Position numbers and translations under genes: made by a program. Below, piece after piece: positions 492 through 58,949 of a stretch of DNA of 64,000 nucleotides. Numbering within the stretch: position 1 is the first letter of the stretch; each line of letters starts with the position of its first letter. Under the pieces are notes generated by a model that did no database searches, was not told where the DNA came from, and saw nothing but the letters and a program-made list of their open reading frames with translations. The stretch lies in IMG/VR virus record IMGVR_UViG_3300031994_000022. One strand, 5' to 3'. This stretch comes from a virus (taxonomy: Duplodnaviria > Caudoviricetes).

Positions 492-564
492 TGGGCTGTC
501 GCCAAGCGGTGAAGGCATCAGACTTTGACTCTGAGATTCGGTGGTTCGAATCCACTCAGCCCAG
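492..564 (+). tRNA. tRNA-Gln(UUG)
   Basis: Acceptor TGGGCTG/CAGCCCA, D arm GCCAAGCGGTGAAGGC, anticodon arm TCAGA-CTTTGAC-TCTGA, T loop GGTTCGAATCC; CCA not encoded. Confidence 0.95.
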
Positions 565-47772: not shown

Positions 47773-50700
47773 TTAATATCTATTCTTTTTTAAAGTATTA
47801 TTACCCATTGCTTGACCTATAGTAATCTCTTGCCAGAATTTCTCAAGCTCTTTGTCTTGTTTCATTTCACGCTTGAAATCATTGTAGTTCTCAACATTAG
47901 GTAATTCGATTGTAATGTTATTGTTCGAAGTCACATTCCTTACATTACTAGAGCCGACATTTGGTACGGCAAGTCCAACAGTAGTAGGAATATTTCCTTT
48001 CGCAATTTCCCACAATCTTTGTGACATATCATGGGTAAAGACCATATCTCCACGATTGAGTGGTGTAAGCATAGCACCATCAGATGTACGATAGATAAGC
48101 TCGGATGCATTTTCCTGAGTCCATGCAAGCTGGTCACGAGGTGAAGCTTTAGTACCCTTAGCATAACCAAGCCAGTCACCATTTGAACCAAAGGTATATG
48201 ACTTGCCTCCGATGGTTTGCTTTCCGGTCACCATATATCCTTCGCTGTCAAAGTAGTACCAATCACCATCAATCTTTAACCACTCATTTTTTGGATATGA
48301 ACCATCGGAATATTCCCACCAATAGCCTTTGTCGTTATGTTTCCAAGAACCATCCCAACTTGAATCCCAATAACCTTCGCTGTTGAGCCAGTATCCATCA
48401 ACATATTCATTTGCGGCATATGAACCATTTCCGTATTGATACCAATTACCTCTATCATCTTTCTGCCATGAACCTTTATGGAAAAGTTCTTGGACATCAT
48501 CTTTTATAGACGCACCACCAGTTTTCTTATCGGTACCATTACTAGGTGTATCAGAACCATCAGAAGATTTGGGTTTATTATTCTCTGAATTGGTAAGGGT
48601 TATCATACCATCAGCTATTGTTTTAACATCAACTGACATATGTTCGACAATACCTTTAACACCATTCGTAGCAGGGTCGGTAACCTTCTCCATTGATTTT
48701 CTAAAATCATCAATGATACTTCCTACATTTCCAATCTTATCTCCAAGACTTTCAAAATGCTCAGTTGATTTAATATCATAATCATTTTTAACTTCTTGCA
48801 GTCCTTTAGTAATAGCTTCTCCATTCTTTTGGATATAAGGCTGCATATTATTCATAACTGCAATAATACTTTCAGTTTGATCATTAAGATATTCTTCAAC
48901 GCCAGATTTCATATCATCAAGCATCTGATTGGTTTCGGAAATATATCTGTCCCATTCAGTTTCTTCGAGTTGTTGCTGTGCATCATTTAATTGCTTTTGA
49001 AGTTCCTGACGCTTCTTACGAGTTTCCTCAGAATCATCGCCTTGATAAGCGGCAAGTTGCTTTTCGAGGTCACTGATAGATTTTGTTTGATTGGCAATAT
49101 TTTTTTGGAAATCATATAAATCCTTTTCGGTATTTAATGATTCTTTAAACTTGTCTATAAGTTCACCAAGAGATTCAATGTATTTACTAATACCTTCTCT
49201 TACAAGACTCTGCATAGCTTCCATAGCTTCTTTTTCGGCATTTGCGGTATCACGCATAGCTTGAGCTATCTTTTCTTGTTCTTCAATAATATTTTTATTA
49301 TTTGGATCATTTGCTAATTGATTGCTTACTATGGTATATTGTTTTTGATAACGCTTTAAACGCTCGGTAGCATCAGTGTATTGAGCACTGATCAGACCAG
49401 CTTGTGCAAATCCACGGTTATTTAAAAAGCCTTTATCATTATAATTATTCTCGCTTTGCAGAAGTCCGATTAACCAATCAGCTTCATTAGCTATATCCGA
49501 AAGTCTTTCTTCTAACCAATCAAACTTATCCCACTGTAACTGCATAATTGTATTATTCAGTTTAACAAGTTCAGTGTTAGATTCTTCGTAAGCTTTGTTG
49601 ACATCCTGTACTTGCTGATACATGTCATTCCAAGCTTCAGTACCTTCTTGGATTTTTCCATTGACAACAGCGTCATTGAATCTTTTCACAGCTTCATCAA
49701 GTTCTTCAGCATATTTTTTATTCTGATCTTTTTCATATTCAACAAGTTTGTCATAATATGATTGATCTACGAAATAACCATGTTCCTCAGTACGTGCAAT
49801 ACGCTCATTAATGATGTCAGCTTGCTTCTCAATGTTAGTAATTTGACCTTCATATTCGGCAATAATATTTTCAAGCAGTTGCTTATATTGATCTTTAACA
49901 GCTATCTGGAGATCCTTAACCGCATCACCAGCAGCAACAGATTTATTGTAGAGTTCTTGATAATTTTGAATGGCTTCGACAAGATACTTATTAGCAATCT
50001 TCTCGATGTCGTTACCACTCATTAAACCTTCACGAACCTTACGCTGATAGTCGCCTGTTGCCCATGCAGCTACAGCTTTATTGTATTGTTCTAAGTCATA
50101 TGCATATTGCTTAGATGATTTAGCCGTTGTCTCGTCATCGCCGTAATCTTCCCAGTTTAATTCCTTACCGTCATTAACGGCAACTTTTTTAGCGTTGCGG
50201 AGATACTCTTCTTGGGCAGTAGTCTGAGCTTTAATTTCTTGATTAAGTTGCTTAATCTTTTCGCCAATCTTTTCGTTACGTTTCGCCCAATTCTCATAAA
50301 CATCGTTGATAACTTTGTCAAGTCGGTCAATCTCTTCCTCGATACGTTGGATGGCAACTTCAATCCAATCAAATGTCTCATCGGTATCCTCAGAAGCTTT
50401 GTCGTTGTTGGTGGAGTCTCCACCACCACCGTTATCTCCTCCACCTCCGGAAGATTTAGATGAACCACCGCCACCATATTTACCAGTAGCACCAGTTTGT
50501 GTTCCGTTCCATTTATATTTAATCCCTTTAAGTGTTTTTACATCAACAGCACTAATATTTACTCTTGCATCTGATGGTGCGCCGTTAAAACCTTGCGTTG
50601 TTTCTCCAACTCTAACTGTATCCCATTCATAATCTGCCGTTATTGCACCACCAGTTATTTCGGAAATCCATGCTTTAAACTGAGCCATAGTGCCTGAAAA

Positions 50701-53700
50701 CTGAGATTGTAGACTGGCAAGAGTAGCAAGAAATGGTGCACTATTAAGATAAGCTCCAACTTCAAAATCAGACGAATCTAATTCTGCAATTTGTTGAGCT
50801 AATAAGTTAGCATCAGACCAAAATGCATCGTCATATAATTCAGCATTAAATAATATTTTTTTACTAGCCTCAACACGTAATTTTCCGATAGCCTCAATAT
50901 CTCCTTCTATGGCATCTTCAATTAGTTCGGCATTTTTAATAATAAAATCAGCATCAATTTCTGGACTAAGCTCTGGGATAGCTTTCCCTTCCTCATTATA
51001 AACAGCAATAAGATTCTGAACCTTATCAGTCATTTTTGTTATTATTTCAGAATCGCTATCTTTTGCAGCTACAGCTTTATCAAACGCTGTTTTGTTTTGT
51101 GTGACATATTTAGATAATTCTTTAAGGGCAGTTGCATGTGCTTTATAACGTTTTGTTAATCTTGATTCAACTACTTCTTGAGCATTAGTTATACCTTGTT
51201 CTTTAAGTTGCTGAATATAATATTCCTTTTCGGCATCAGTAACATGATCCAAATCATCTATAAGTGTATCTAATACACCACTTTGATCTACATATGCAGT
51301 TGCAAGTTGGTTTGTTGCAGTTTGAGCAGCGTCAGCATCACCAGCATTTTCTACAAGAGCATCATTGTATTGCTCAATAGCAGAAGAGAGGAGATTGACA
51401 TCTTGGTCAGCACCAGCATCAAATGTTGTACCACCAAATGCACTATTAACAGCCTCAATCTCAGTAGCAGTTGCTTTACCACCTTCAACTTTAGTTTTAT
51501 TGTATGCTGTCGCCAAATCATCACCAAATGCATCATCCATAGCTTTGAGATCTGCAACACCTTTAGAAGATTTGGTTTCGATTTCGACATCAACAGTGAT
51601 AGGACTCATACGTTTAGATAATTCTTCTTTCAAAGCATCATAATCTAAACTCTCTGTATCTGGTTCTAATTCTATTCCTAATGCTATTTGTCTTTCTTCA
51701 GGTGTTAATTCTTCCAAATACTTATCCGACCAATTATCACCCATAATCTCTTTAAGATGCTCATATTGTTCATCAAGATTTTCTATACCTGGTTCTAATG
51801 GATGTGATTTTACATAATTAGTCAATGTTTCATAAGACGATTGTGCATCTTGAGTACTCTGTTGAAAATCTTTGCCCATAGAATCATAGTCTTTTGCTAA
51901 ATTCCATGCACCAAATTTACCAGAGAAATGCATAAGATAACCAGCATCTACGGCACCAATACCTTCGTTACCAGTAACTTCGTCAACACCAGCTATAAGC
52001 CCTTTACCGTATTCTTCTCCATATTTTTTACCATCGGCACTATCAATTTTTAATATTTCATCAATAGATATTTCACCATCTTCAGCAGCTTTTGCTATTA
52101 CCGAATCAATGTAATTATATACTTCATTTTTTCCTAAAAATACAGCACCATCTTCCGTCTGTAAAATAGGTGTGAAGGCAATTGTGTGTTCAGTCTCATC
52201 CCATTCAAACGTACTACTGCCACCAAAAACAGTATCAATCGTACCAACTTCAGGATTATAATTATCCCAAGACGCCAACTCTTTTTCATATGTTTTCTTC
52301 AACTCGTCAGACCATTCGATAATGGTTCGTTTATCCATATCGACATTGCCAAACTTATGAAGCACACCACTATCAATATCATTTTCAAATTGAAGATAAT
52401 CTTTTCCAGCTTCTTTGCCCCAATCTGATAGTTTTTGACGTTCACGATCTACTTCGGATTCTTCTGCTTGTATCTTATGAATATTTCCCTCGGAATCATA
52501 ATAAGTGCCACCAATTTCAGGTATATTTTCTGGATTATATTTATCATTTATTCCCTTTAAGGTAGAATCATATATTGCTCTTTTATAATTTAATATGGCA
52601 TTTAACGTATCATCGTCAATTCCTTGTTCTTCTAATTTTGCAAAGAATTCCTCATTCATTGATTTTAACTTATTAAAATCAAATTCTTCCATGTTATACA
52701 TATCTTCAACAACTTTATTGAATTCTCCAGCAAAATCATAATCAAGGCTTTCGTCATTACTCCAATCAGTTAACAACTGGTTAAAATTATTTGGATCAAT
52801 CATAGATTGAAGATTATTTATATACCCAACATATTCTTCATAAATATCTTCATATCCAGCTATAATATTACCTTCTGAATCTTGAAAAGAAGCTAATACT
52901 TCATATAATGTATTAATATATTCAGTGATTTCAACAGTATTTTTATCAACAACTTCTTTCCATTTTAATTGATCTTTTTCGTTACCTTCTCTAATTGCGT
53001 TGACATACTGATTGTATCCTTGTTGTGTATAGTCATTTTGATAATACTCAGCCCAATCTTTATAACTAGCATTAGTTTCTTCATTCGCAACCACCTTGCC
53101 ATTATCTTCAAGACTATATGTTTTGCCCGTATAACCAGTATTCAGAACATCCTTAGCATTAATAGCAGCACTTTCACGTTGAAGTTTAATATTTGTTTCT
53201 AAGATACGCTGTTGAGATTCTAACAAGGATTTGGTTCTTGCCAACCTATCTATGTCTCCTTGATCTGATAATGTCAAAGTTCCCTTGGCTTGAATGGATG
53301 CTATATCATCATCAATCTTTTTAATCTGAGAATTTAAACTACTTAATTCACTTTCAGAAGATTGTAATTCACTCACGGATTTATCAAGTTTTTCAGTAGC
53401 TTTTGAAATAGCCTCCAATTCTTTTTCTTTTTGAGCTTTGCCAGTAAGTTCATCCCAAAGTTCTTTAGCTTTGTCAATAATCCAACTTACAGCCGCCATT
53501 ATAGCCGCTGAAGTCAAGGCATTAACAATAGATTTACCCACACTTTTAAAAGCGTTGCCAAGTTTAGTAGTCTTATTAGATGTTTCATCCATTATTGAGT
53601 TAATGCCTTTAACAGCAGCTTGACCAGTTTCACCAGTTTTTTGTAATTCAGTTTTTAATTCTTGTAACTTGGTTTTAACATTGTCTGTTAAGTTAACCGA

Positions 53701-53856
53701 GTTCTCTAAATCCATACCTAAGAATTTTGCCGTTGGATCTGAAGAATTTAATTGTATATAATCTAAAACATTATTATATTGATTAATATCTTTTTTATTA
53801 TTGGCATGTTGATACATCGCACCAATCAATGTACCAGAATCGTTTGTATTAAATAG
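47773..53856 (-). CDS. Tape measure protein, exon 2
   Basis: Long helical ORF, ETFDWIE..I.R motif; its ATG has no RBS and supplies the intron omega-G; C-terminal cell-wall-binding repeats. Confidence 0.88.
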   Translation of the reverse strand, partial: LFNTNDSGTLIGAMYQHANNKKDINQYNNVLDYIQLNSSDPTAKFLGMDLENSVNLTDNVKTKLQELKTELQKTGETGQAAVKGINSIMDETSNKTTKLGNAFKSVGKSIVNALTSAAIMAAVSWIIDKAKELWDELTGKAQKEKELEAISKATEKLDKSVSELQSSESELSSLNSQIKKIDDDIASIQAKGTLTLSDQGDIDRLARTKSLLESQQRILETNIKLQRESAAINAKDVLNTGYTGKTYSLEDNGKVVANEETNASYKDWAEYYQNDYTQQGYNQYVNAIREGNEKDQLKWKEVVDKNTVEITEYINTLYEVLASFQDSEGNIIAGYEDIYEEYVGYINNLQSMIDPNNFNQLLTDWSNDESLDYDFAGEFNKVVEDMYNMEEFDFNKLKSMNEEFFAKLEEQGIDDDTLNAILNYKRAIYDSTLKGINDKYNPENIPEIGGTYYDSEGNIHKIQAEESEVDRERQKLSDWGKEAGKDYLQFENDIDSGVLHKFGNVDMDKRTIIEWSDELKKTYEKELASWDNYNPEVGTIDTVFGGSSTFEWDETEHTIAFTPILQTEDGAVFLGKNEVYNYIDSVIAKAAEDGEISIDEILKIDSADGKKYGEEYGKGLIAGVDEVTGNEGIGAVDAGYLMHFSGKFGAWNLAKDYDSMGKDFQQSTQDAQSSYETLTNYVKSHPLEPGIENLDEQYEHLKEIMGDNWSDKYLEELTPEERQIALGIELEPDTESLDYDALKEELSKRMSPITVDVEIETKSSKGVADLKAMDDAFGDDLATAYNKTKVEGGKATATEIEAVNSAFGGTTFDAGADQDVNLLSSAIEQYNDALVENAGDADAAQTATNQLATAYVDQSGVLDTLIDDLDHVTDAEKEYYIQQLKEQGITNAQEVVESRLTKRYKAHATALKELSKYVTQNKTAFDKAVAAKDSDSEIITKMTDKVQNLIAVYNEEGKAIPELSPEIDADFIIKNAELIEDAIEGDIEAIGKLRVEASKKILFNAELYDDAFWSDANLLAQQIAELDSSDFEVGAYLNSAPFLATLASLQSQFSGTMAQFKAWISEITGGAITADYEWDTVRVGETTQGFNGAPSDARVNISAVDVKTLKGIKYKWNGTQTGATGKYGGGGSSKSSGGGGDNGGGGDSTNNDKASEDTDETFDWIEVAIQRIEEEIDRLDKVINDVYENWAKRNEKIGEKIKQLNQEIKAQTTAQEEYLRNAKKVAVNDGKELNWEDYGDDETTAKSSKQYAYDLEQYNKAVAAWATGDYQRKVREGLMSGNDIEKIANKYLVEAIQNYQELYNKSVAAGDAVKDLQIAVKDQYKQLLENIIAEYEGQITNIEKQADIINERIARTEEHGYFVDQSYYDKLVEYEKDQNKKYAEELDEAVKRFNDAVVNGKIQEGTEAWNDMYQQVQDVNKAYEESNTELVKLNNTIMQLQWDKFDWLEERLSDIANEADWLIGLLQSENNYNDKGFLNNRGFAQAGLISAQYTDATERLKRYQKQYTIVSNQLANDPNNKNIIEEQEKIAQAMRDTANAEKEAMEAMQSLVREGISKYIESLGELIDKFKESLNTEKDLYDFQKNIANQTKSISDLEKQLAAYQGDDSEETRKKRQELQKQLNDAQQQLEETEWDRYISETNQMLDDMKSGVEEYLNDQTESIIAVMNNMQPYIQKNGEAITKGLQEVKNDYDIKSTEHFESLGDKIGNVGSIIDDFRKSMEKVTDPATNGVKGIVEHMSVDVKTIADGMITLTNSENNKPKSSDGSDTPSNGTDKKTGGASIKDDVQELFHKGSWQKDDRGNWYQYGNGSYAANEYVDGYWLNSEGYWDSSWDGSWKHNDKGYWWEYSDGSYPKNEWLKIDGDWYYFDSEGYMVTGKQTIGGKSYTFGSNGDWLGYAKGTKASPRDQLAWTQENASELIYRTSDGAMLTPLNRGDMVFTHDMSQRLWEIAKGNIPTTVGLAVPNVGSSNVRNVTSNNNITIELPNVENYNDFKREMKQDKELEKFWQEITIGQAMGNNTLKKNRY

Positions 53857-53872
53857 CATATTAATATATAAT
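53844..53872 (+). promoter_or_regulatory. sigma-A-type promoter for the intron cargo gene
   Basis: TTGTAT(53844-49)-17 nt-TATAAT(53867-72). Confidence 0.7.
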
Positions 53873-54938
53873 ATCTTTGTGAAACATTATATATAAGGAG
53901 AGTACATTATGGGGATATTAAGATATTGTCAACATTGTATGGGAATAAATAAAACTAGTAAAGAAGAAACTGATCCGAGAAATGGTTTTACAGTAACATT
54001 AGTTTATTATACGTTTTATCATGGCTTTGTAGCCAATGATATGGTAACAACATGCCCAATGTGTCAAGGCGAATTAACAAAAATGAACCTAACCACAGAA
54101 GAGTGGAAGTATACAACTAATGTATCACTTGACCAAGATTTCATTTTTGCAATGGACAAATTAAAACAAGATGATATAATCGAATTTAATATAAAAATTG
54201 CAAAATTTAAAGAAACTTATGATACCGTTGAACTTGCTCGTGTTCAAGCTAGATCTACAAGTTCGTCATCTACCCAATCCACCAACATCCCCAAATGCCC
54301 AACGTGTGGCAGTACCGACATCAAGAAAATATCCGGTACAAAGAGATGGTTGGGTACAGGATTGTTTGGTCTTGCTTCATCCGATTTAGGAAAGACTATG
54401 CAGTGCAACTCGTGTGGATATAAGTTTTAAATATTTCTACTCATGCGCACAAACCGCTAGTAGAAGAGTAGTAGCACTACTAGCCGGAGCTTTTTCATAG
54501 GCTTCTCAAACCTATGTCTTGGACTCTACCTTCATGCCTTTCGACACGCCCACTTGAGAGCCTCTGGGGGCGACACTTATTAACTGTTCAAAAATTGCTA
54601 AATTTGAACAGTTAAAAAAAATAATAATTATTTAAGTGTTCAAAATTTGCCAAATTTGAATAGTTACCAGTACGTCTCCCTGCTGATTGGATTATTGGGT
54701 AGGATATAACGGTGTACCGTTATACTTGAGAACCAATAACCTTTCCAGTCCTTGTGCGAGCCTCACGGACATCGCAGAGTGCGGAGCTACCCACACCCAT
54801 ATCAGTGGTACGAGAGCCAATAAAACCCTCGTTTGATTTTACTTGTGTATCCTACGCCAATAATGGCGGTCTTTGTGTTTTACCCACGGTTATTTAGCCG
54901 TGGCACGGGAATACACCTGAGCCTACTTAATTACTTTA
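53857..54938 (-). mobile_element. Group I self-splicing intron in the tape measure gene
   Basis: P1 CUGGGU/GCUCAG with U.G at 5' splice site; 9-bp P10; P4 CUGAUAUGG/CCAAUCAG; P7 GGCUCU/AGAGUC; P8 GAAA and P9 GAGA loops; omega-G; in-frame ligation KLG|LFN. Confidence 0.92.
53909..54430 (+). CDS. Double zinc-ribbon protein encoded antisense inside the intron
   Basis: AAGGAG RBS; CQHC...CPMC and CPTCGST...GLFGLAS..LGK..QCNSCGYKF. Confidence 0.88.
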   Translation: MGILRYCQHCMGINKTSKEETDPRNGFTVTLVYYTFYHGFVANDMVTTCPMCQGELTKMNLTTEEWKYTTNVSLDQDFIFAMDKLKQDDIIEFNIKIAKFKETYDTVELARVQARSTSSSSTQSTNIPKCPTCGSTDIKKISGTKRWLGTGLFGLASSDLGKTMQCNSCGYKF

Positions 54939-57900
54939 ACCCAGCTTTTTGGTACCTATGACAGTACCAATACCTATAATGGCAGTTTTAAATAAACCAA
55001 TCTTATTAACAATAGCATCTAATATCTCGATAAATTTAGTTCCAGTATCAATTAAACCTTTAAGAAAATCGGAATTAATTGCATCATTTATTAATTCTTC
55101 AAGAGCTGCTTTTGCTCTATTTATGGAATATTCAAGACCTTGCTCAAAATTCTCTTGCTCACGCATAGCACTACCAGCACTATTCTCAGCAGTTTCGTAT
55201 GCAGATTCTAGAGTGTCAATATTGTCAAGAATGGCGAAAAGCGTATTCGCATTTCTTTTTCCAGCTAGTGCCTCTCCAAGAGATGCACGTTCTATATCAT
55301 CAAGATTCTTCCATTCTTTTCCAATACCTATAAGAATATCATATATAGATTTATATGTTTTTTGATCAGCTTCAAGAATATCAAAACCAGTAAGTGATTT
55401 AACTAAACCTTGGAGTTTAGAAGTTGTTTCGGTAAACTCATCTGCTTCTTCTCCAAGCTCCTCGAGATCCGTTTTAGATCCACGAATACGAGCCGAGAGA
55501 GTTTTGAATGTAGTACCTACAGATTCAGGATTCTGAACTACAGTATTTGCAGCAGTTACTAATGCCACAGATTGTTCTAAAGAAGTGTTAGCGGCATTAA
55601 GAGACGCAGCTGAACGCTGTAATGCCTCACCAATACCAGCGGTATCTATTGCATAATTATTTGCCACTTCATTAAATACATCCACAATATGTTCCGCTTC
55701 ATCAGCTTGCATCTGATAACCTTGTAAGGTTGATATAAGTGATTGATTAGCGGCATCAATATCTATACCATCACCAACATTTTTGTAAAGAAGTGCAACA
55801 CGAGCAAGTTCTTTGGCATCAGGTACATTGTATCCAAGACGTGCCCAATCAGCTGTTGCACTGATTGTGTCGGTTATAGTTGAACCTAAATCTTTAGCTG
55901 TATCAGCATACGATTGAAAATCGCCTTTAATCTGTTCAAGACTTTGTTCAGATACTTTAGCAAGTTCAACCATTTGAACGTTAAGATCTTGTATGGTTGT
56001 AAATGCTTGGCGAGCATAACGAATTATGTCTTGGAAACTAAAGTATTGAGCAAAGAACTTTGCATTCATATCAGATAAACGATGAGAGAATTGACTTAAA
56101 AATCCCCCTCCTTTTACATCATCACCTAATTCTTTAAATCGAGCATCAACCTTAAGTAATTCCGTGATAAGATCGTTTAATTCACTTTGAGGTTTAGAGG
56201 TATCAAAATTTTGAAACAAATTTTGTAATTTTAAATAGTCTTGATATACATCAGTTGCTTTAAAAGCACGTTTAGTATTTTTACTTAATACATCATTTAT
56301 CTTTGCTAAATTCTTCTGAATTGAATTCTCATTAGCTAACTTATTTTCAGCGAGAGTAGCTTCTTGAGTTAATTGTTTTAACCGATTTTTTGCCTCAGCT
56401 AACTCTTGCAATTCTTTTTCTGAAACAATATTAATGGTATCTGAATCACCTTGAATACGAGCCAATGTCGATCTTAATTCATCAATCTCACTAGAAAACT
56501 CAGGGATATATTTTCTCTTTTTCTCTAGTGTATCAAGTGAATTCATTGCATTATCAATATCTGAGATATATTTATTTAACGCTTTTTGATTTTGTAAATC
56601 TTTTAAATTTAATGCATCTTTAAGAGCCGCAGCACTAGTTGCTACACCTCTAGTAATTCGCTCATTTTCTTCCTCAGTAAAATTAAGTTTCTTAAGTTCG
56701 GTTATCTCATCATCAATCTTAGCGATTTCTTCATCTCTAACTGAATTATCGCCATTTTTTATTTTTTTGATCTCAAGTTTATTACGTTCATTAACCAACT
56801 TAATGTATCGGCTTATACTTTTTTCTCGCTCTTTATCTGAATCTGCATCGTCTGATTTTTTTGTCTTTGTTTTATTTTCAGATTTATTTAATTCTTCGTT
56901 GGCTTCAGCTACGGACTCTTTCGCTTTGGCAGTCTGTTTAGCCGATTCAGTAACGTTATCTAATGACGATGATTCACTATTCAACGATGCCTCTGTTGGC
57001 TCGGTTGACGCTGCTAATTCTTCGTTGGCTTCTTTTACAGACTTCTTAGCTTCAGCCGTTTGTTTTGCTGATTCTGTTACATTATCTAAATCCGTTTGAC
57101 TTATATGGGTTTCTATAGGTTTCTTATTTTTTACTTTAACATTTACGCTATTTTTACTATTTGTATCAATAGGATTATTGTTAATAATCTGTACTTGTGT
57201 AGTTATTTCTTTAAACTTTTCAATAACTGAATCTAACAATCCAGATATCTTTTCTAAAGATTCTCCAAATAAATCTTTTTTAGAAATATCAGATATTAAA
57301 TCTCTAATATCTGAAAGATATTGTACTATTTCTGTTAAATCTACTTTTTCGTCATCTAAATTAATAATTTCATCAGTGTCTTTTAATCCAGATTTTTCAC
57401 GCAGTTTGCTTCTAAAATAAGAATCATCTGGTGTAGGTAGGTTGATATTTGACAAGTCTAAACCAAACTCATCAAACCCCATAGCTTGTTTTAGAATTTT
57501 AAAAAAGTCCATATATCTATATATTTGACTTTCGGCTGATTCTAATTGTGAAACGTTAGATGAACCAAAAGTTTCATATAATTGATCTATACCACCTTTA
57601 AAATCTACAACATTATTAATATATGCAAATAATTTTTCTTCGCTTCCGGCTTGACCCACAACTTTTGAATATGCGTTCTTATATCTAGACATTGTAGATC
57701 TTAAATAATCTTTAGTCGCAGCTTCTCGTTCTTGAGCAATTCTATCTACTCCTTGATTGATTTGAACATTATAAACTCCAGTTCCGACTTTTTGATTTAC
57801 TTCATCGAGTTTACCTAATAAAATATCCACACTAGATATAATATTGGTAAAACCATTTTCATCATCGACAGAGCCTAACGTATTTCTTATATCTAGCAAA

Positions 57901-58949
57901 TGTTTAGATATTTGTTCTAAAACATCAATCAACGGTTTAAGACTCTCATCATTTACCGAACTTTTTAATGTGTCTCCTAATAATTCGGCATTTTCACTCG
58001 CCTCTTTTGCTTCGGTTGATATTTCTGACGTAGCATCATTTGCTTTTTTTATTTGATCGGGGGAGATGTATACTTTATCTTGTAATCTTCCAAAGGAGTC
58101 TTCAATATCTTTTACTTCAAATCCCATTTCAGACATGAGTTGAATTAAATCAAATACTTTTTGTTGAAATACACCCCAACTTTCTTCATCAAAACTAAGA
58201 AATTCTCCATCTTTTGCAGAACTACTCATTTCATCCATAGCAGATTTCAAATCAGCCATCATTCTGTCTCTAGTAGCACGATACTCTTCACGTTTTTGTC
58301 GTTCCGCTTCTCTTACAGCATCCGCCGTCCTTTTTGCTTCTTCTCGTTGCTGTTTCAATAAATCAGATTGCTGCTTTACATAATTCTCATTAGCATCATA
58401 TGTAATATCTGACATATGACTATTTAATTGTTGATTCGCTTTATTTGTAAAATTATCATAATACTCTTTTAAATAATCTTGTTTAAAAACATCAGAATTA
58501 TTAAAAATACTGTCAAATATATTTTTATAAATAGACGAAATTTCTTGACCGAATTTATTTGAATAAGTTTCCAAAAATGCGTAAAATTTTAAAAAGTATT
58601 TTTCGCCCTTACTTATTGATTCAGATGATATCTTTGAAATATCAAAAGATTCGATAAACTTTTCAATATCCACGCCAGAATTTAAAGCTTCTTTTTTTAT
58701 AGAGTCAATATCTTTTTTTACAGTTTTGGTATTCCATAATTCCAAATCTGTTCTTTTAGTATTTCTAGCTTCATCCCATAATTCATTTATTGATTTTTTT
58801 AATTTCTTTACTTCCGAATCATCGGCTTTGGGAGTTAATTTCGTTTGATTAATTTTATTTTGAGTGTCTAAAACCGATTCGAGTCTAGACACTAATCCAT
58901 CTAAAGCGGAGGTATCAACACCACCACTACCAGTTACACCTTTAGGCAT
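54936..58949 (-). CDS. Tape measure protein, exon 1 (TP901-type core; coding ends at 54939)
   Basis: MVELAKVS...ADWARLGY, VDVFNEVANNYAI, ALQRSAASL, VGT.FKTLSARIRG; AAAGGAGG RBS; the TAA is the first 3 nt of the intron. Confidence 0.92.
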   Translation of the reverse strand: MPKGVTGSGGVDTSALDGLVSRLESVLDTQNKINQTKLTPKADDSEVKKLKKSINELWDEARNTKRTDLELWNTKTVKKDIDSIKKEALNSGVDIEKFIESFDISKISSESISKGEKYFLKFYAFLETYSNKFGQEISSIYKNIFDSIFNNSDVFKQDYLKEYYDNFTNKANQQLNSHMSDITYDANENYVKQQSDLLKQQREEAKRTADAVREAERQKREEYRATRDRMMADLKSAMDEMSSSAKDGEFLSFDEESWGVFQQKVFDLIQLMSEMGFEVKDIEDSFGRLQDKVYISPDQIKKANDATSEISTEAKEASENAELLGDTLKSSVNDESLKPLIDVLEQISKHLLDIRNTLGSVDDENGFTNIISSVDILLGKLDEVNQKVGTGVYNVQINQGVDRIAQEREAATKDYLRSTMSRYKNAYSKVVGQAGSEEKLFAYINNVVDFKGGIDQLYETFGSSNVSQLESAESQIYRYMDFFKILKQAMGFDEFGLDLSNINLPTPDDSYFRSKLREKSGLKDTDEIINLDDEKVDLTEIVQYLSDIRDLISDISKKDLFGESLEKISGLLDSVIEKFKEITTQVQIINNNPIDTNSKNSVNVKVKNKKPIETHISQTDLDNVTESAKQTAEAKKSVKEANEELAASTEPTEASLNSESSSLDNVTESAKQTAKAKESVAEANEELNKSENKTKTKKSDDADSDKEREKSISRYIKLVNERNKLEIKKIKNGDNSVRDEEIAKIDDEITELKKLNFTEEENERITRGVATSAAALKDALNLKDLQNQKALNKYISDIDNAMNSLDTLEKKRKYIPEFSSEIDELRSTLARIQGDSDTINIVSEKELQELAEAKNRLKQLTQEATLAENKLANENSIQKNLAKINDVLSKNTKRAFKATDVYQDYLKLQNLFQNFDTSKPQSELNDLITELLKVDARFKELGDDVKGGGFLSQFSHRLSDMNAKFFAQYFSFQDIIRYARQAFTTIQDLNVQMVELAKVSEQSLEQIKGDFQSYADTAKDLGSTITDTISATADWARLGYNVPDAKELARVALLYKNVGDGIDIDAANQSLISTLQGYQMQADEAEHIVDVFNEVANNYAIDTAGIGEALQRSAASLNAANTSLEQSVALVTAANTVVQNPESVGTTFKTLSARIRGSKTDLEELGEEADEFTETTSKLQGLVKSLTGFDILEADQKTYKSIYDILIGIGKEWKNLDDIERASLGEALAGKRNANTLFAILDNIDTLESAYETAENSAGSAMREQENFEQGLEYSINRAKAALEELINDAINSDFLKGLIDTGTKFIEILDAIVNKIGLFKTAIIGIGTVIGTKKLG

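Follow-up and report, generated by a model that had tools for sequence, protein, structure and literature searches.

The analysed DNA, a stretch of 64,000 nucleotides (nt) from the viral record IMGVR_UViG_3300031994_000022 (Duplodnaviria; Caudoviricetes), is referred to here as the window. On its minus strand, the very large gene for the tape measure protein (TMP) of this gut phage is present as two open reading frames (ORFs), 54936..58949 with 1337 amino acids (aa) and 47773..53859 with 2028 aa, and 1082 nt lie between them (53857-54938). We suggest that these 1082 nt are, with good probability, a group I-type intron and belong to a family that escapes the Rfam model; its splicing is predicted from the sequence. 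The intron, on the minus strand, consists of a ribozyme in its 5' approximately 445 nt and a cargo region in its 3' approximately 640 nt, where a gene for a zinc-ribbon protein lies on the opposite strand. An earlier note on this DNA, made without database searches, had proposed a group I intron at this place, and the ORFs and the gap that it described were confirmed.

Exon 1 (54939..58949, minus strand, 1337 codons) contains a PhageMin_Tail domain at aa 1016-1230 and is approximately 40% identical to the contiguous TMP (2528 aa) of the SPbeta-like Brevibacillus phage Sundance. A protein search with the end of exon 1 finds longer relatives, many of them TMPs of 2300-4900 aa. The exon ends with AAG CTG GGT, and the next triplet, TAA, is formed by intron bases 1-3. 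Exon 2 (47773..53856, minus strand, 2027 codons and a stop) has choline-binding repeats close to its C-terminus and its protein begins LFNTNDSGT..., matching P0131, a contiguous and intronless TMP of 4143 aa. When exon 1 (its final 150 aa) and exon 2 (its initial 137 aa) are aligned to P0131, the two matches adjoin with gap 0, i.e., this protein spans the junction (...GSQRLG|LFNTNDSGTIFGAITQ... in P0131, ...GTKKLG|LFNTNDSGTLIGAMYQ... in the window). The DNA encoding P0131 (locus L042) is uninterrupted, reads ...CTGGGA|TTATTTAATACAAATGATTCTGG (intronless site CTGGGA|TTATTTAAT) and lacks the ribozyme motif.

Ligation of the two exons would restore the reading frame as K-L-G|L-F-N and give a TMP of 1337+2027 = 3364 aa, with the predicted junction AAGCTGGGTCTATTTAAT (as exon ends, AAGCTGGGT|CTATTTAAT) and the peptide KLG-LFNTNDSGTLIGAMYQHANNK. 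The intron ends in ...AUAUG, with G53857 as its final base (omega-G); both this end and the in-frame ligation, as given in the earlier note, were verified from the sequence. The site is also read through in P0122, P0123 and P0130. However, P0121 and P0124 stop precisely at ...KLG and P0125 stops three residues further, and these are additional interrupted alleles. TMPs that are 75-84% identical over the junction part exist both with and without the insertion. The TMP gene is interrupted, and the exact position of the junction is fixed by the intronless P0131/L042, by the pairing of P1 and P10 described below and by the reading frame. At the insertion site, L042 has GGA|TTA where the window has GGT|CTA. 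The differences are synonymous at both flanking bases and fall exactly on the positions on which the U.G pair and the initial pair of P10 depend.

The insertion is not limited to the window. Homologous insertions follow identical AAR CTG GGT codons in the IMG/VR contigs L003 and L004. A motif search (GGCTCAG N25-40 GGTAAAACACAAAGA) returned 15 metagenome loci, 7 viral loci and 2 genome bins, one from an uncultured Lachnospiraceae and one a Clostridiales metagenome-assembled genome. Searching with the cargo protein added another four loci, all four with ribozyme motifs. In total, an insertion at the identical codon, together with homologues of both the RNA and the antisense ORF, is found in approximately 29 loci, representing approximately nine distinct lineages. 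Among GenBank phages, megablast and blastn gave no real match to the intron and no close DNA relative of the window, and tblastn with the start of exon 2 gave no match.

At the 5' splice site, the exon sequence CUGGGU (54944-54939) pairs with the guide GCUCAG (54922-54917) to form P1, with a U.G pair (U54939.G54922) at the junction, as had been claimed before. In the alignment of 14 sequences described below, P1 (helix 1) is 100% paired and the U.G is invariant; a G.U pair has changed to A-U in L017 and L022. On its 5' side the P1 guide adjoins AUUAAGUAG (54931-54923), which forms P10 with the beginning of exon 2, CUAUUUAAU (53856-53848). Nine pairs had been claimed and nine are present, but one of them is G.U, so not all are of the Watson-Crick type. 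Across variants P10 has 8-9 pairs and occurs in four forms, with compensatory changes in the guide and in exon 2. The guide and the exon 2 start are AUUAAAUAG and CUAUUUAAU in L004, UCCAAAUAG and CUGUUUGGA in L003, AUGUGUAAG and CUUGCACA in L007, and GUGUGCGAG and CUCGCACA in L020.

In the search for the 3' splice sites of the relatives, a candidate was a G directly before six or more uninterrupted P10 pairs that continued the frame of exon 1 and led into a long ORF. The terminal G is thus a search condition in the relatives, while the junction of the window was fixed independently by P0131. In 11 variants P10 and the reading frame together selected a single 3' site, the first candidate yielding the expected exon 2, and the resulting introns are 946-1092 nt (six variants) or 3219-4287 nt (five variants) long. 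L028, where the ORF is short and 2 kb of sequence contain no zinc-ribbon gene, has an uncertain predicted site, which was left out.

An alternative to splicing is that the TMP consists of two polypeptides, the gap being an intergenic region with a moron and an RNA of some other role. The TAA directly after exon 1 and, in the window, an ATG directly before exon 2 would fit such an arrangement, as would the fact that Rfam finds no intron here. However, the last three bases of the intron are ATG in some variants only, and elsewhere CAG, TAG or TTG (relatives end ...ACAG, ...ATAG and ...TTTG). No ribosome-binding site (RBS) precedes exon 2 in the window, and neither a start codon nor an RBS is conserved at this position across the variants. 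Separate translation of the second half of the TMP is therefore unlikely. Contiguous homologs run through the exact junction, P1 and P10 pair across both junctions, P10 covaries and the RNA folds with a group I topology. Two separately made polypeptides are thus highly improbable, and below we describe the gap as an intron.

The structure of the intron RNA was derived by comparison, and base pairs were counted on a MAFFT alignment of the 14 sequences. All elements are located on the minus strand. P2 (GUGUAU 54916-54911 with AUACAC 54850-54845) covaries by eye and encloses P2a (54903-54884) and P2b (54868-54855), which are helices 2 and 3 of the count and have two-sided changes in 7 of 10 pairs. 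The hairpin P2.1 (54831-54811) follows. P3 (CCACU 54808-54804 with AGUGG 54554-54550) is found as CCACU/AGUGG, CCUCU/AGAGG and UCGCU/AGCGA. Between P3 and P4 there are two hairpins, A (54796-54779) and B (54776-54755), the second with a conserved 12-nt loop, UGUYCGUGAGRC; as helices 5 and 6 they show two-sided changes in 8 of 11 pairs. P4 (CUGG 54748-54745 with UCAG 54686-54683) exists as CUGG/UCAG, CAAG/CUUG and CAAG/UUUG and is bordered by A-rich J4/5 and J5/4 segments, while P5 (54739-54733 with 54698-54692), which bears a distal hairpin, covaries by eye in the clade of the window. P6 pairs GGG-A-GAC-GU-ACU (54680-54669) with AGU-GUC-G-CCC (54577-54567), and 5 of its 9 pairs have two-sided changes.

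P7, which the earlier note had assembled from its R and S elements, pairs GGCUC (54562-54558) with GAGUC (54526-54522) and covaries (GGCUC/GAGUC, GACUA/UAGUC, GGCCA/UGGUC), with AAGGUA as J8/7. It encloses P8 (54548-54533), which has a GAAA loop. P9 (54516-54496) has a conserved UGAGA loop and two-sided changes in 8 of 8 pairs, and is followed by a conserved GAAAAAG; both of these hairpins had been predicted and are confirmed. The order P7-P3'-P8-P7' is that of group I introns, and together with the long-range P3 it forms the group I pseudoknot. The core, P3 to P9 with the P3/P7 pseudoknot and the P4-P6 stack, shows covariation in P3, P4, P6, P7, P8 and P9.

In the 61 counted pairs of 11 helices, 98.8% of the cells are paired and 35 of the 61 pairs have two-sided changes. 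Not one of 500 shuffles reaches any of four measures, and when the partner strand is slid by 1-3 columns, pairing falls to 32-44% and the number of two-sided pairs to 3-6. Related sequences can beat shuffles; nevertheless, the result is clear from the slid controls and from how many pair types occur at each position. P2, P5 and the distal part of P8 are outside the 61 pairs because MAFFT set the clades out of register there. The minimum free energy fold of the window RNA (z = -5.4) independently recovers all nested helices, including P2, P2a, P2b and P2.1. The RNA is conserved, covaries and has a group I topology.

Two other pairings were rejected. The earlier note had placed P4 at 54797-54805 with 54678-54690 (CUGAUAUGG/CCAAUCAG). 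The 5' strand of this helix overlaps the covarying P3, and L020 and L028 do not preserve the pairing, while covariation is seen for CUGG/UCAG. We also considered a core in which hairpin A is P4, hairpin B is P6 and GACUGG is P7, but its P3' would be the covarying P5 stem. In the window, P6 is extended by two near-identical palindromic hairpins, TTCAAATTTRGCAAWTTTTGAAC (54660-54638 and 54608-54586), with an A/T-rich stretch between them. The palindromes are absent elsewhere in the window and the extension is shared only with L027; they may be bound by a protein or represent a small inserted element.

Several observations weigh against the assignment to group I. An Infernal search had been proposed earlier, with the lack of a covariance-model hit as a result that would speak against an intron, and Rfam RF00028 has indeed no match in the window (gathering score, E<=10) or in six relatives (E<=1). 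Over the window and eight relatives, searches at gathering score and at permissive E-values returned no group I match for this family. The same search does detect a canonical intron elsewhere in the TMP gene of L003 (54 bits). The two covarying hairpins between P3 and P4 (54796-54755) are present in 14 of 14 sequences, i.e., J3/4 is not short, and to our knowledge no insertion at this position exists in the described group I subgroups. P2, as a three-way element, is a second non-canonical trait. The group I signature, called complete in the earlier description, is therefore not complete in the canonical sense. We suspect that these hairpins and the three-way P2 are the reason why the Rfam model fails. 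The P, Q, R and S elements can be recognised against the Rfam consensus by eye only (CUGGAAAGG; AAUCAGCAG; CCCA..GACUA in relatives; GAAGGUAUAGUC). The J8/7 and P7' of relatives (GAAGGUAUAGUC) are one base off the consensus, and L007 has CGAAGGUAUAGUC where the consensus has UgAAGAUAUAGUC. In our judgement, the family-specific covariation outweighs the Rfam miss.

The same deviations could instead mean that the RNA is derived from a group I intron but no longer splices by itself, either needing a protein or host cofactor or splicing poorly and thereby throttling the TMP. The insertion between P3 and P4, the lack of an Rfam match and the separation of core and 3' splice site by 0.6-3.8 kb would all agree with this. 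However, all core helices are kept by compensatory changes and the U.G pair and the terminal G are retained. Furthermore, phages with 3-4 kb versions of the intron are common (P0113 is found on 48 contigs), and IStrons splice across similar distances (PMC4227781). We consider a loss of self-splicing unlikely, if less so than two separate polypeptides.

Comparison of related TMP loci, one of the checks proposed in the earlier note, yielded introns with differing cargo as well as intronless alleles, and it is informative about how the intron is inherited. The ribozymes of L007 and L034 are 99.1% identical, while the final 300 nt of exon 1 are just 76% identical. Similarly, between L007 and L017 the identity is 92% for the ribozyme and 73% for the exon 1 end. 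L007 and L030 share identical exon 1 sequences (100%) and nearly identical ribozymes (99%), but the last 450 nt of their introns are only 75% identical. The parts of the intron are thus inherited as a mosaic. Since the ribozyme is better conserved than the exons and the distribution among close TMPs is patchy, the comparison indicates that the intron moves between diverged TMP alleles.

The only long ORF in the gap is the cargo gene P0001 (53909..54430, plus strand), which encodes 173 aa with four CxxC pairs; the complete opposite-strand zinc-ribbon gene described earlier was verified here. A homologous antisense ORF of about 140-185 aa exists in every variant of the intron. It stands beside the 3' splice site in 15 of 15 copies examined, with its start codon approximately 50-70 nt from that site. 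Within the intron family, the zinc-ribbon gene is thus a fixed component and not a random passenger. The protein family has at least 375 members. Among 57 of them, the eight cysteines are invariant together with L85, K86, P128, P131, S135, I141, S142, G154 and S157, and there is no invariant Asp, Glu or His. In an AlphaFold2 model (predicted local distance difference test, pLDDT, 82), an N-terminal zinc-ribbon beta domain is followed by three helices (63-118), a linker and a C-terminal zinc ribbon, which bears a disordered Gly-rich hydrophobic loop.

No source names this protein. Pfam and NCBIfam give only sub-threshold zinc-ribbon matches for P0001, PHROGs and PADLOC give nothing and an Atlas search returns only unnamed clusters. 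Fold and profile searches are at noise level (Foldseek E>=0.6, VIA Z<=3.7, PDB profile E 0.16), and the top structural matches, whose scores are weak (best Foldseek E 0.6, VIA Z 3.7), include no nucleases. The absence of LAGLIDADG, GIY-YIG and HNH motifs, as observed earlier, extends to other nuclease families, among them His-Cys box, PD-(D/E)xK and EDxHD, in Pfam, PHROGs, NCBIfam and PADLOC. No fused longer forms were found among longer proteins.

The cargo gene may be transcribed on its own. A strong RBS precedes the antisense ORF in all variants (AAGGAGAG at 53895-53902, plus strand, in the window). Most relatives also have an extended -10 element (TGnTATAAT-like) 25-40 nt upstream, within the intron end, and the window has TATAAT 13-18 nt inside the intron end. 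Past the cargo stop codon a terminator-like hairpin (54454-54487) is followed by AGCTTTTTC on the plus strand and is probably the cargo terminator. With an RBS, a -10-like region and a terminator-like hairpin of its own, the cargo would be expressible independently of late transcription. Against this, the cargo promoter of the window is weak by consensus (-35 = 3/6), and a consensus promoter and terminator scan is at chance level and does not list our candidate sites, the terminator being our own reading. The scan missed the hairpin because its loop has 13 nt. On the sense RNA the same hairpin (54487-54454) is a P9.1-type stem, and its loop, CUACUACUC (54474-54466), can pair with GAGUAG (54442-54437) approximately 25 nt downstream. 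In L004, L024 and L027 the stem covaries, and the loop and GAGUAG are invariant. Through this pairing a pseudoknot may form where the ribozyme meets the cargo.

For the function of the zinc-ribbon protein, we see an about even chance that it is a non-enzymatic nucleic-acid-binding or protein-binding factor in phage-phage or phage-host conflict. This is favoured by its swapped, fast-changing N-terminal domain and by the neighbouring genes. The N-terminal half is highly variable, and it is unrelated between L007 and L030. A role in the retention or spread of the intron itself is appreciably less probable in our estimate; it is favoured by the universal presence of the gene among copies. This universal presence is also a point against the conflict reading, as it suits a role in the service of the intron equally well. 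Other roles take the remaining share.

The most specific form of a role in the service of the intron is that the protein is its mobility or maintenance factor. It would then be a homing protein of a new type, acting on TMP alleles that lack the intron by cleavage, nicking or marking, or by bringing in a nuclease. It is the sole protein common to all copies, with constant position and orientation, and no other candidate mobility gene is common to them. The intron itself is patchy among close TMPs and in some pairs better conserved than the exons, i.e., mobile. Among 11 contexts of the protein family that were inspected, eight are the intron, two (L012, L014) are remnants and one is L010, so that 10 of the 11 are associated with the intron. 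On the other hand, the protein matches no nuclease family, has no invariant Asp, Glu or His and lacks fused nuclease forms. Its N-terminal domain is swapped wholesale between L007 and L030, although the exon 2 starts of the two are nearly identical (CTTGCACAATAT and CTTGCACATTAT), which is unexpected for a target-recognition domain. Finally, in L010 the gene is found among UvrD-helicase, DUF3644 and McrBC genes without a ribozyme. A mobility factor of this kind is therefore doubtful, and a conflict-related binding protein is preferred.

Regarding the two remnants, the zinc-ribbon gene is there accompanied by exon 2 or intron pieces away from a complete TMP (L012:4481-6041, L014:4129-5536). One copy lies in a phage early or lysogeny-type region and the other in a small island by an integrase beside rny. 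They appear to be remnants or relocated 3' parts of the intron and were not kept as independent cargo contexts; only L010 is clearly unrelated to the TMP.

The cargo region of the long variants contains extra genes. These are always located between P9.1 and the zinc-ribbon gene, never between the zinc-ribbon gene and the splice site, and the content of this bay is variable. One bay gene encodes an NsnA-like protein with a GmrSD_N domain (PADLOC E 2e-40, Pfam E 2e-14), and others encode DUF3800, a 131-aa antisense partner and a PemK-like protein. L038 has a MazE/PemK pair. The earlier proposal that the ribozyme is a landing pad for accessory or defence genes is supported by these variable genes; however, the zinc-ribbon gene, present in every copy, is no occasional passenger. 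Within the copy in L040 (5692-6722) there are IS605 OrfB (TnpB) fragments with HTH_OrfB_IS605, an IStron-like state reached in a different ribozyme family. In the cargo region of L024 (1033-1116), directly downstream of the ribozyme, the skipping-rope RNA motif (RF02924) has a sub-threshold match of 29.1 bits, compared with a gathering score of 36.7 (E 0.007).

We suggest the following mechanism. The late TMP transcript would run through the intron, and its 5' approximately 445 nt would fold as a ribozyme, with P1 and its U.G, P2 to P9 and the P3/P7 pseudoknot. The guide beside P1 would also pair with the first 9 nt of exon 2, and this P10 pairing would bring the core together with the 3' splice site that follows G53857, far away in the sequence. 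Self-splicing of the TMP intron and ligation would then yield the 3364-aa TMP (...KLG-LFNT...). The stretch from P9/P9.1 to the 3' splice site would be tolerated as a loop-out, here with one opposite-strand gene.

More tentatively, the intron could be speculated to be a gene-cassette platform that exchanges conflict genes after P9, the zinc-ribbon protein being a new nuclease-less factor that drives or guards its spread. The ribozyme would then neutralise the insertion at a single site in an essential, highly expressed structural gene, and conflict genes (restriction-like nuclease, toxin-antitoxin, TnpB) would be swapped between phages as the intron moves.

Other interruptions exist in these TMP genes. 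A second, canonical group I intron lies upstream, in the PhageMin_Tail domain, in L003 (6599-7038, the one found by Rfam) and in L004 (3270-4510), where it harbours, on the sense strand, the gene of an HNH-type homing endonuclease of 300 aa (phrog_559, E 1e-46). The window does not have this upstream intron. In L039 and L041 the TMP is split into still more pieces. At the start of the window there is a tRNA gene (492-564, plus strand, 62.6 bits).

The standard group I model misses an entire intron family, although phage contigs from gut and rumen commonly contain it, so split TMPs in such phages are likely to be mis-annotated as two genes. Self-splicing would gain a second use here, in that a ribozyme shelters variable accessory or defence-type genes within an essential gene. 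Such genes would resist loss by simple deletion, which would endanger the TMP. The conserved, intron-tied zinc-ribbon protein of 150-190 aa could be a new mobility or conflict factor, and for students of ribozyme structure the two hairpins between P3 and P4 are of interest.

Our literature search found no description of this intron family, of the antisense zinc-ribbon gene or of defence-type cargo in a phage intron. The earlier statement that the arrangement is undescribed thus holds for the literature searched, with partial precedents in TMP introns, antisense genes of ribosomal DNA (rDNA) introns, IStrons and coral introns.

Phage group I introns with homing endonuclease genes are found in T4 (td, nrdB, sunY) and SPO1, and the junction in the window resembles that of the T4 td intron, as the earlier note pointed out. 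The present intron has in common with them the U.G at the 5' site, the terminal G, the P1/P10 guide and a looped-out ORF. However, its ORF is antisense, matches no nuclease family and is located downstream of P9, not within a closed loop.

In TMP genes of Bacillus cereus-group prophages, the group I introns TMP-IVS1, IVS2 and IVS3 have been described (PMC2504315). The present intron is like them in being of a self-splicing type, in a TMP of Firmicute phages, with patchy distribution and guides adapted to the site (PMC2504315). However, the Bacillus introns were found by the standard group I model, while Rfam does not detect the present family, in which two hairpins separate P3 from P4. It also has a fixed antisense gene and a variable bay, neither of which we found mentioned for the Bacillus introns (PMC2504315).

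IStrons such as CdISt1 and BcISt1 begin with a ribozyme, carry their protein genes towards the 3' end and have a 3' splice site that is distant from the core (PMC4227781). The layout of 5' ribozyme and 3' genes is shared, and in both cases splicing would render the gene insertion harmless. However, IStron ribozymes are of the IA2 type with P7.1 and P7.2, and their cargo transposase/TnpB moves the IStron to many sites (PMC4227781), while the present intron occupies one fixed site and has a constant antisense zinc-ribbon gene. In the intron of the window, neither the ORFs nor the family searches revealed a transposase, and among the relatives only L040 has OrfB fragments.

Nuclear rDNA group I introns carry antisense homing endonuclease genes that encode His-Cys box nucleases (PMC9548176), and the giant ND5-717 introns of coral mitochondria enclose ordinary mitochondrial housekeeping genes (PMC6545197). 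Through these introns, both an antisense location of a gene within a group I intron and a cargo of genes other than endonuclease genes have precedents. However, both are eukaryotic, and the genes in the coral introns are not mobile accessory or defence genes, unlike those in the present intron.

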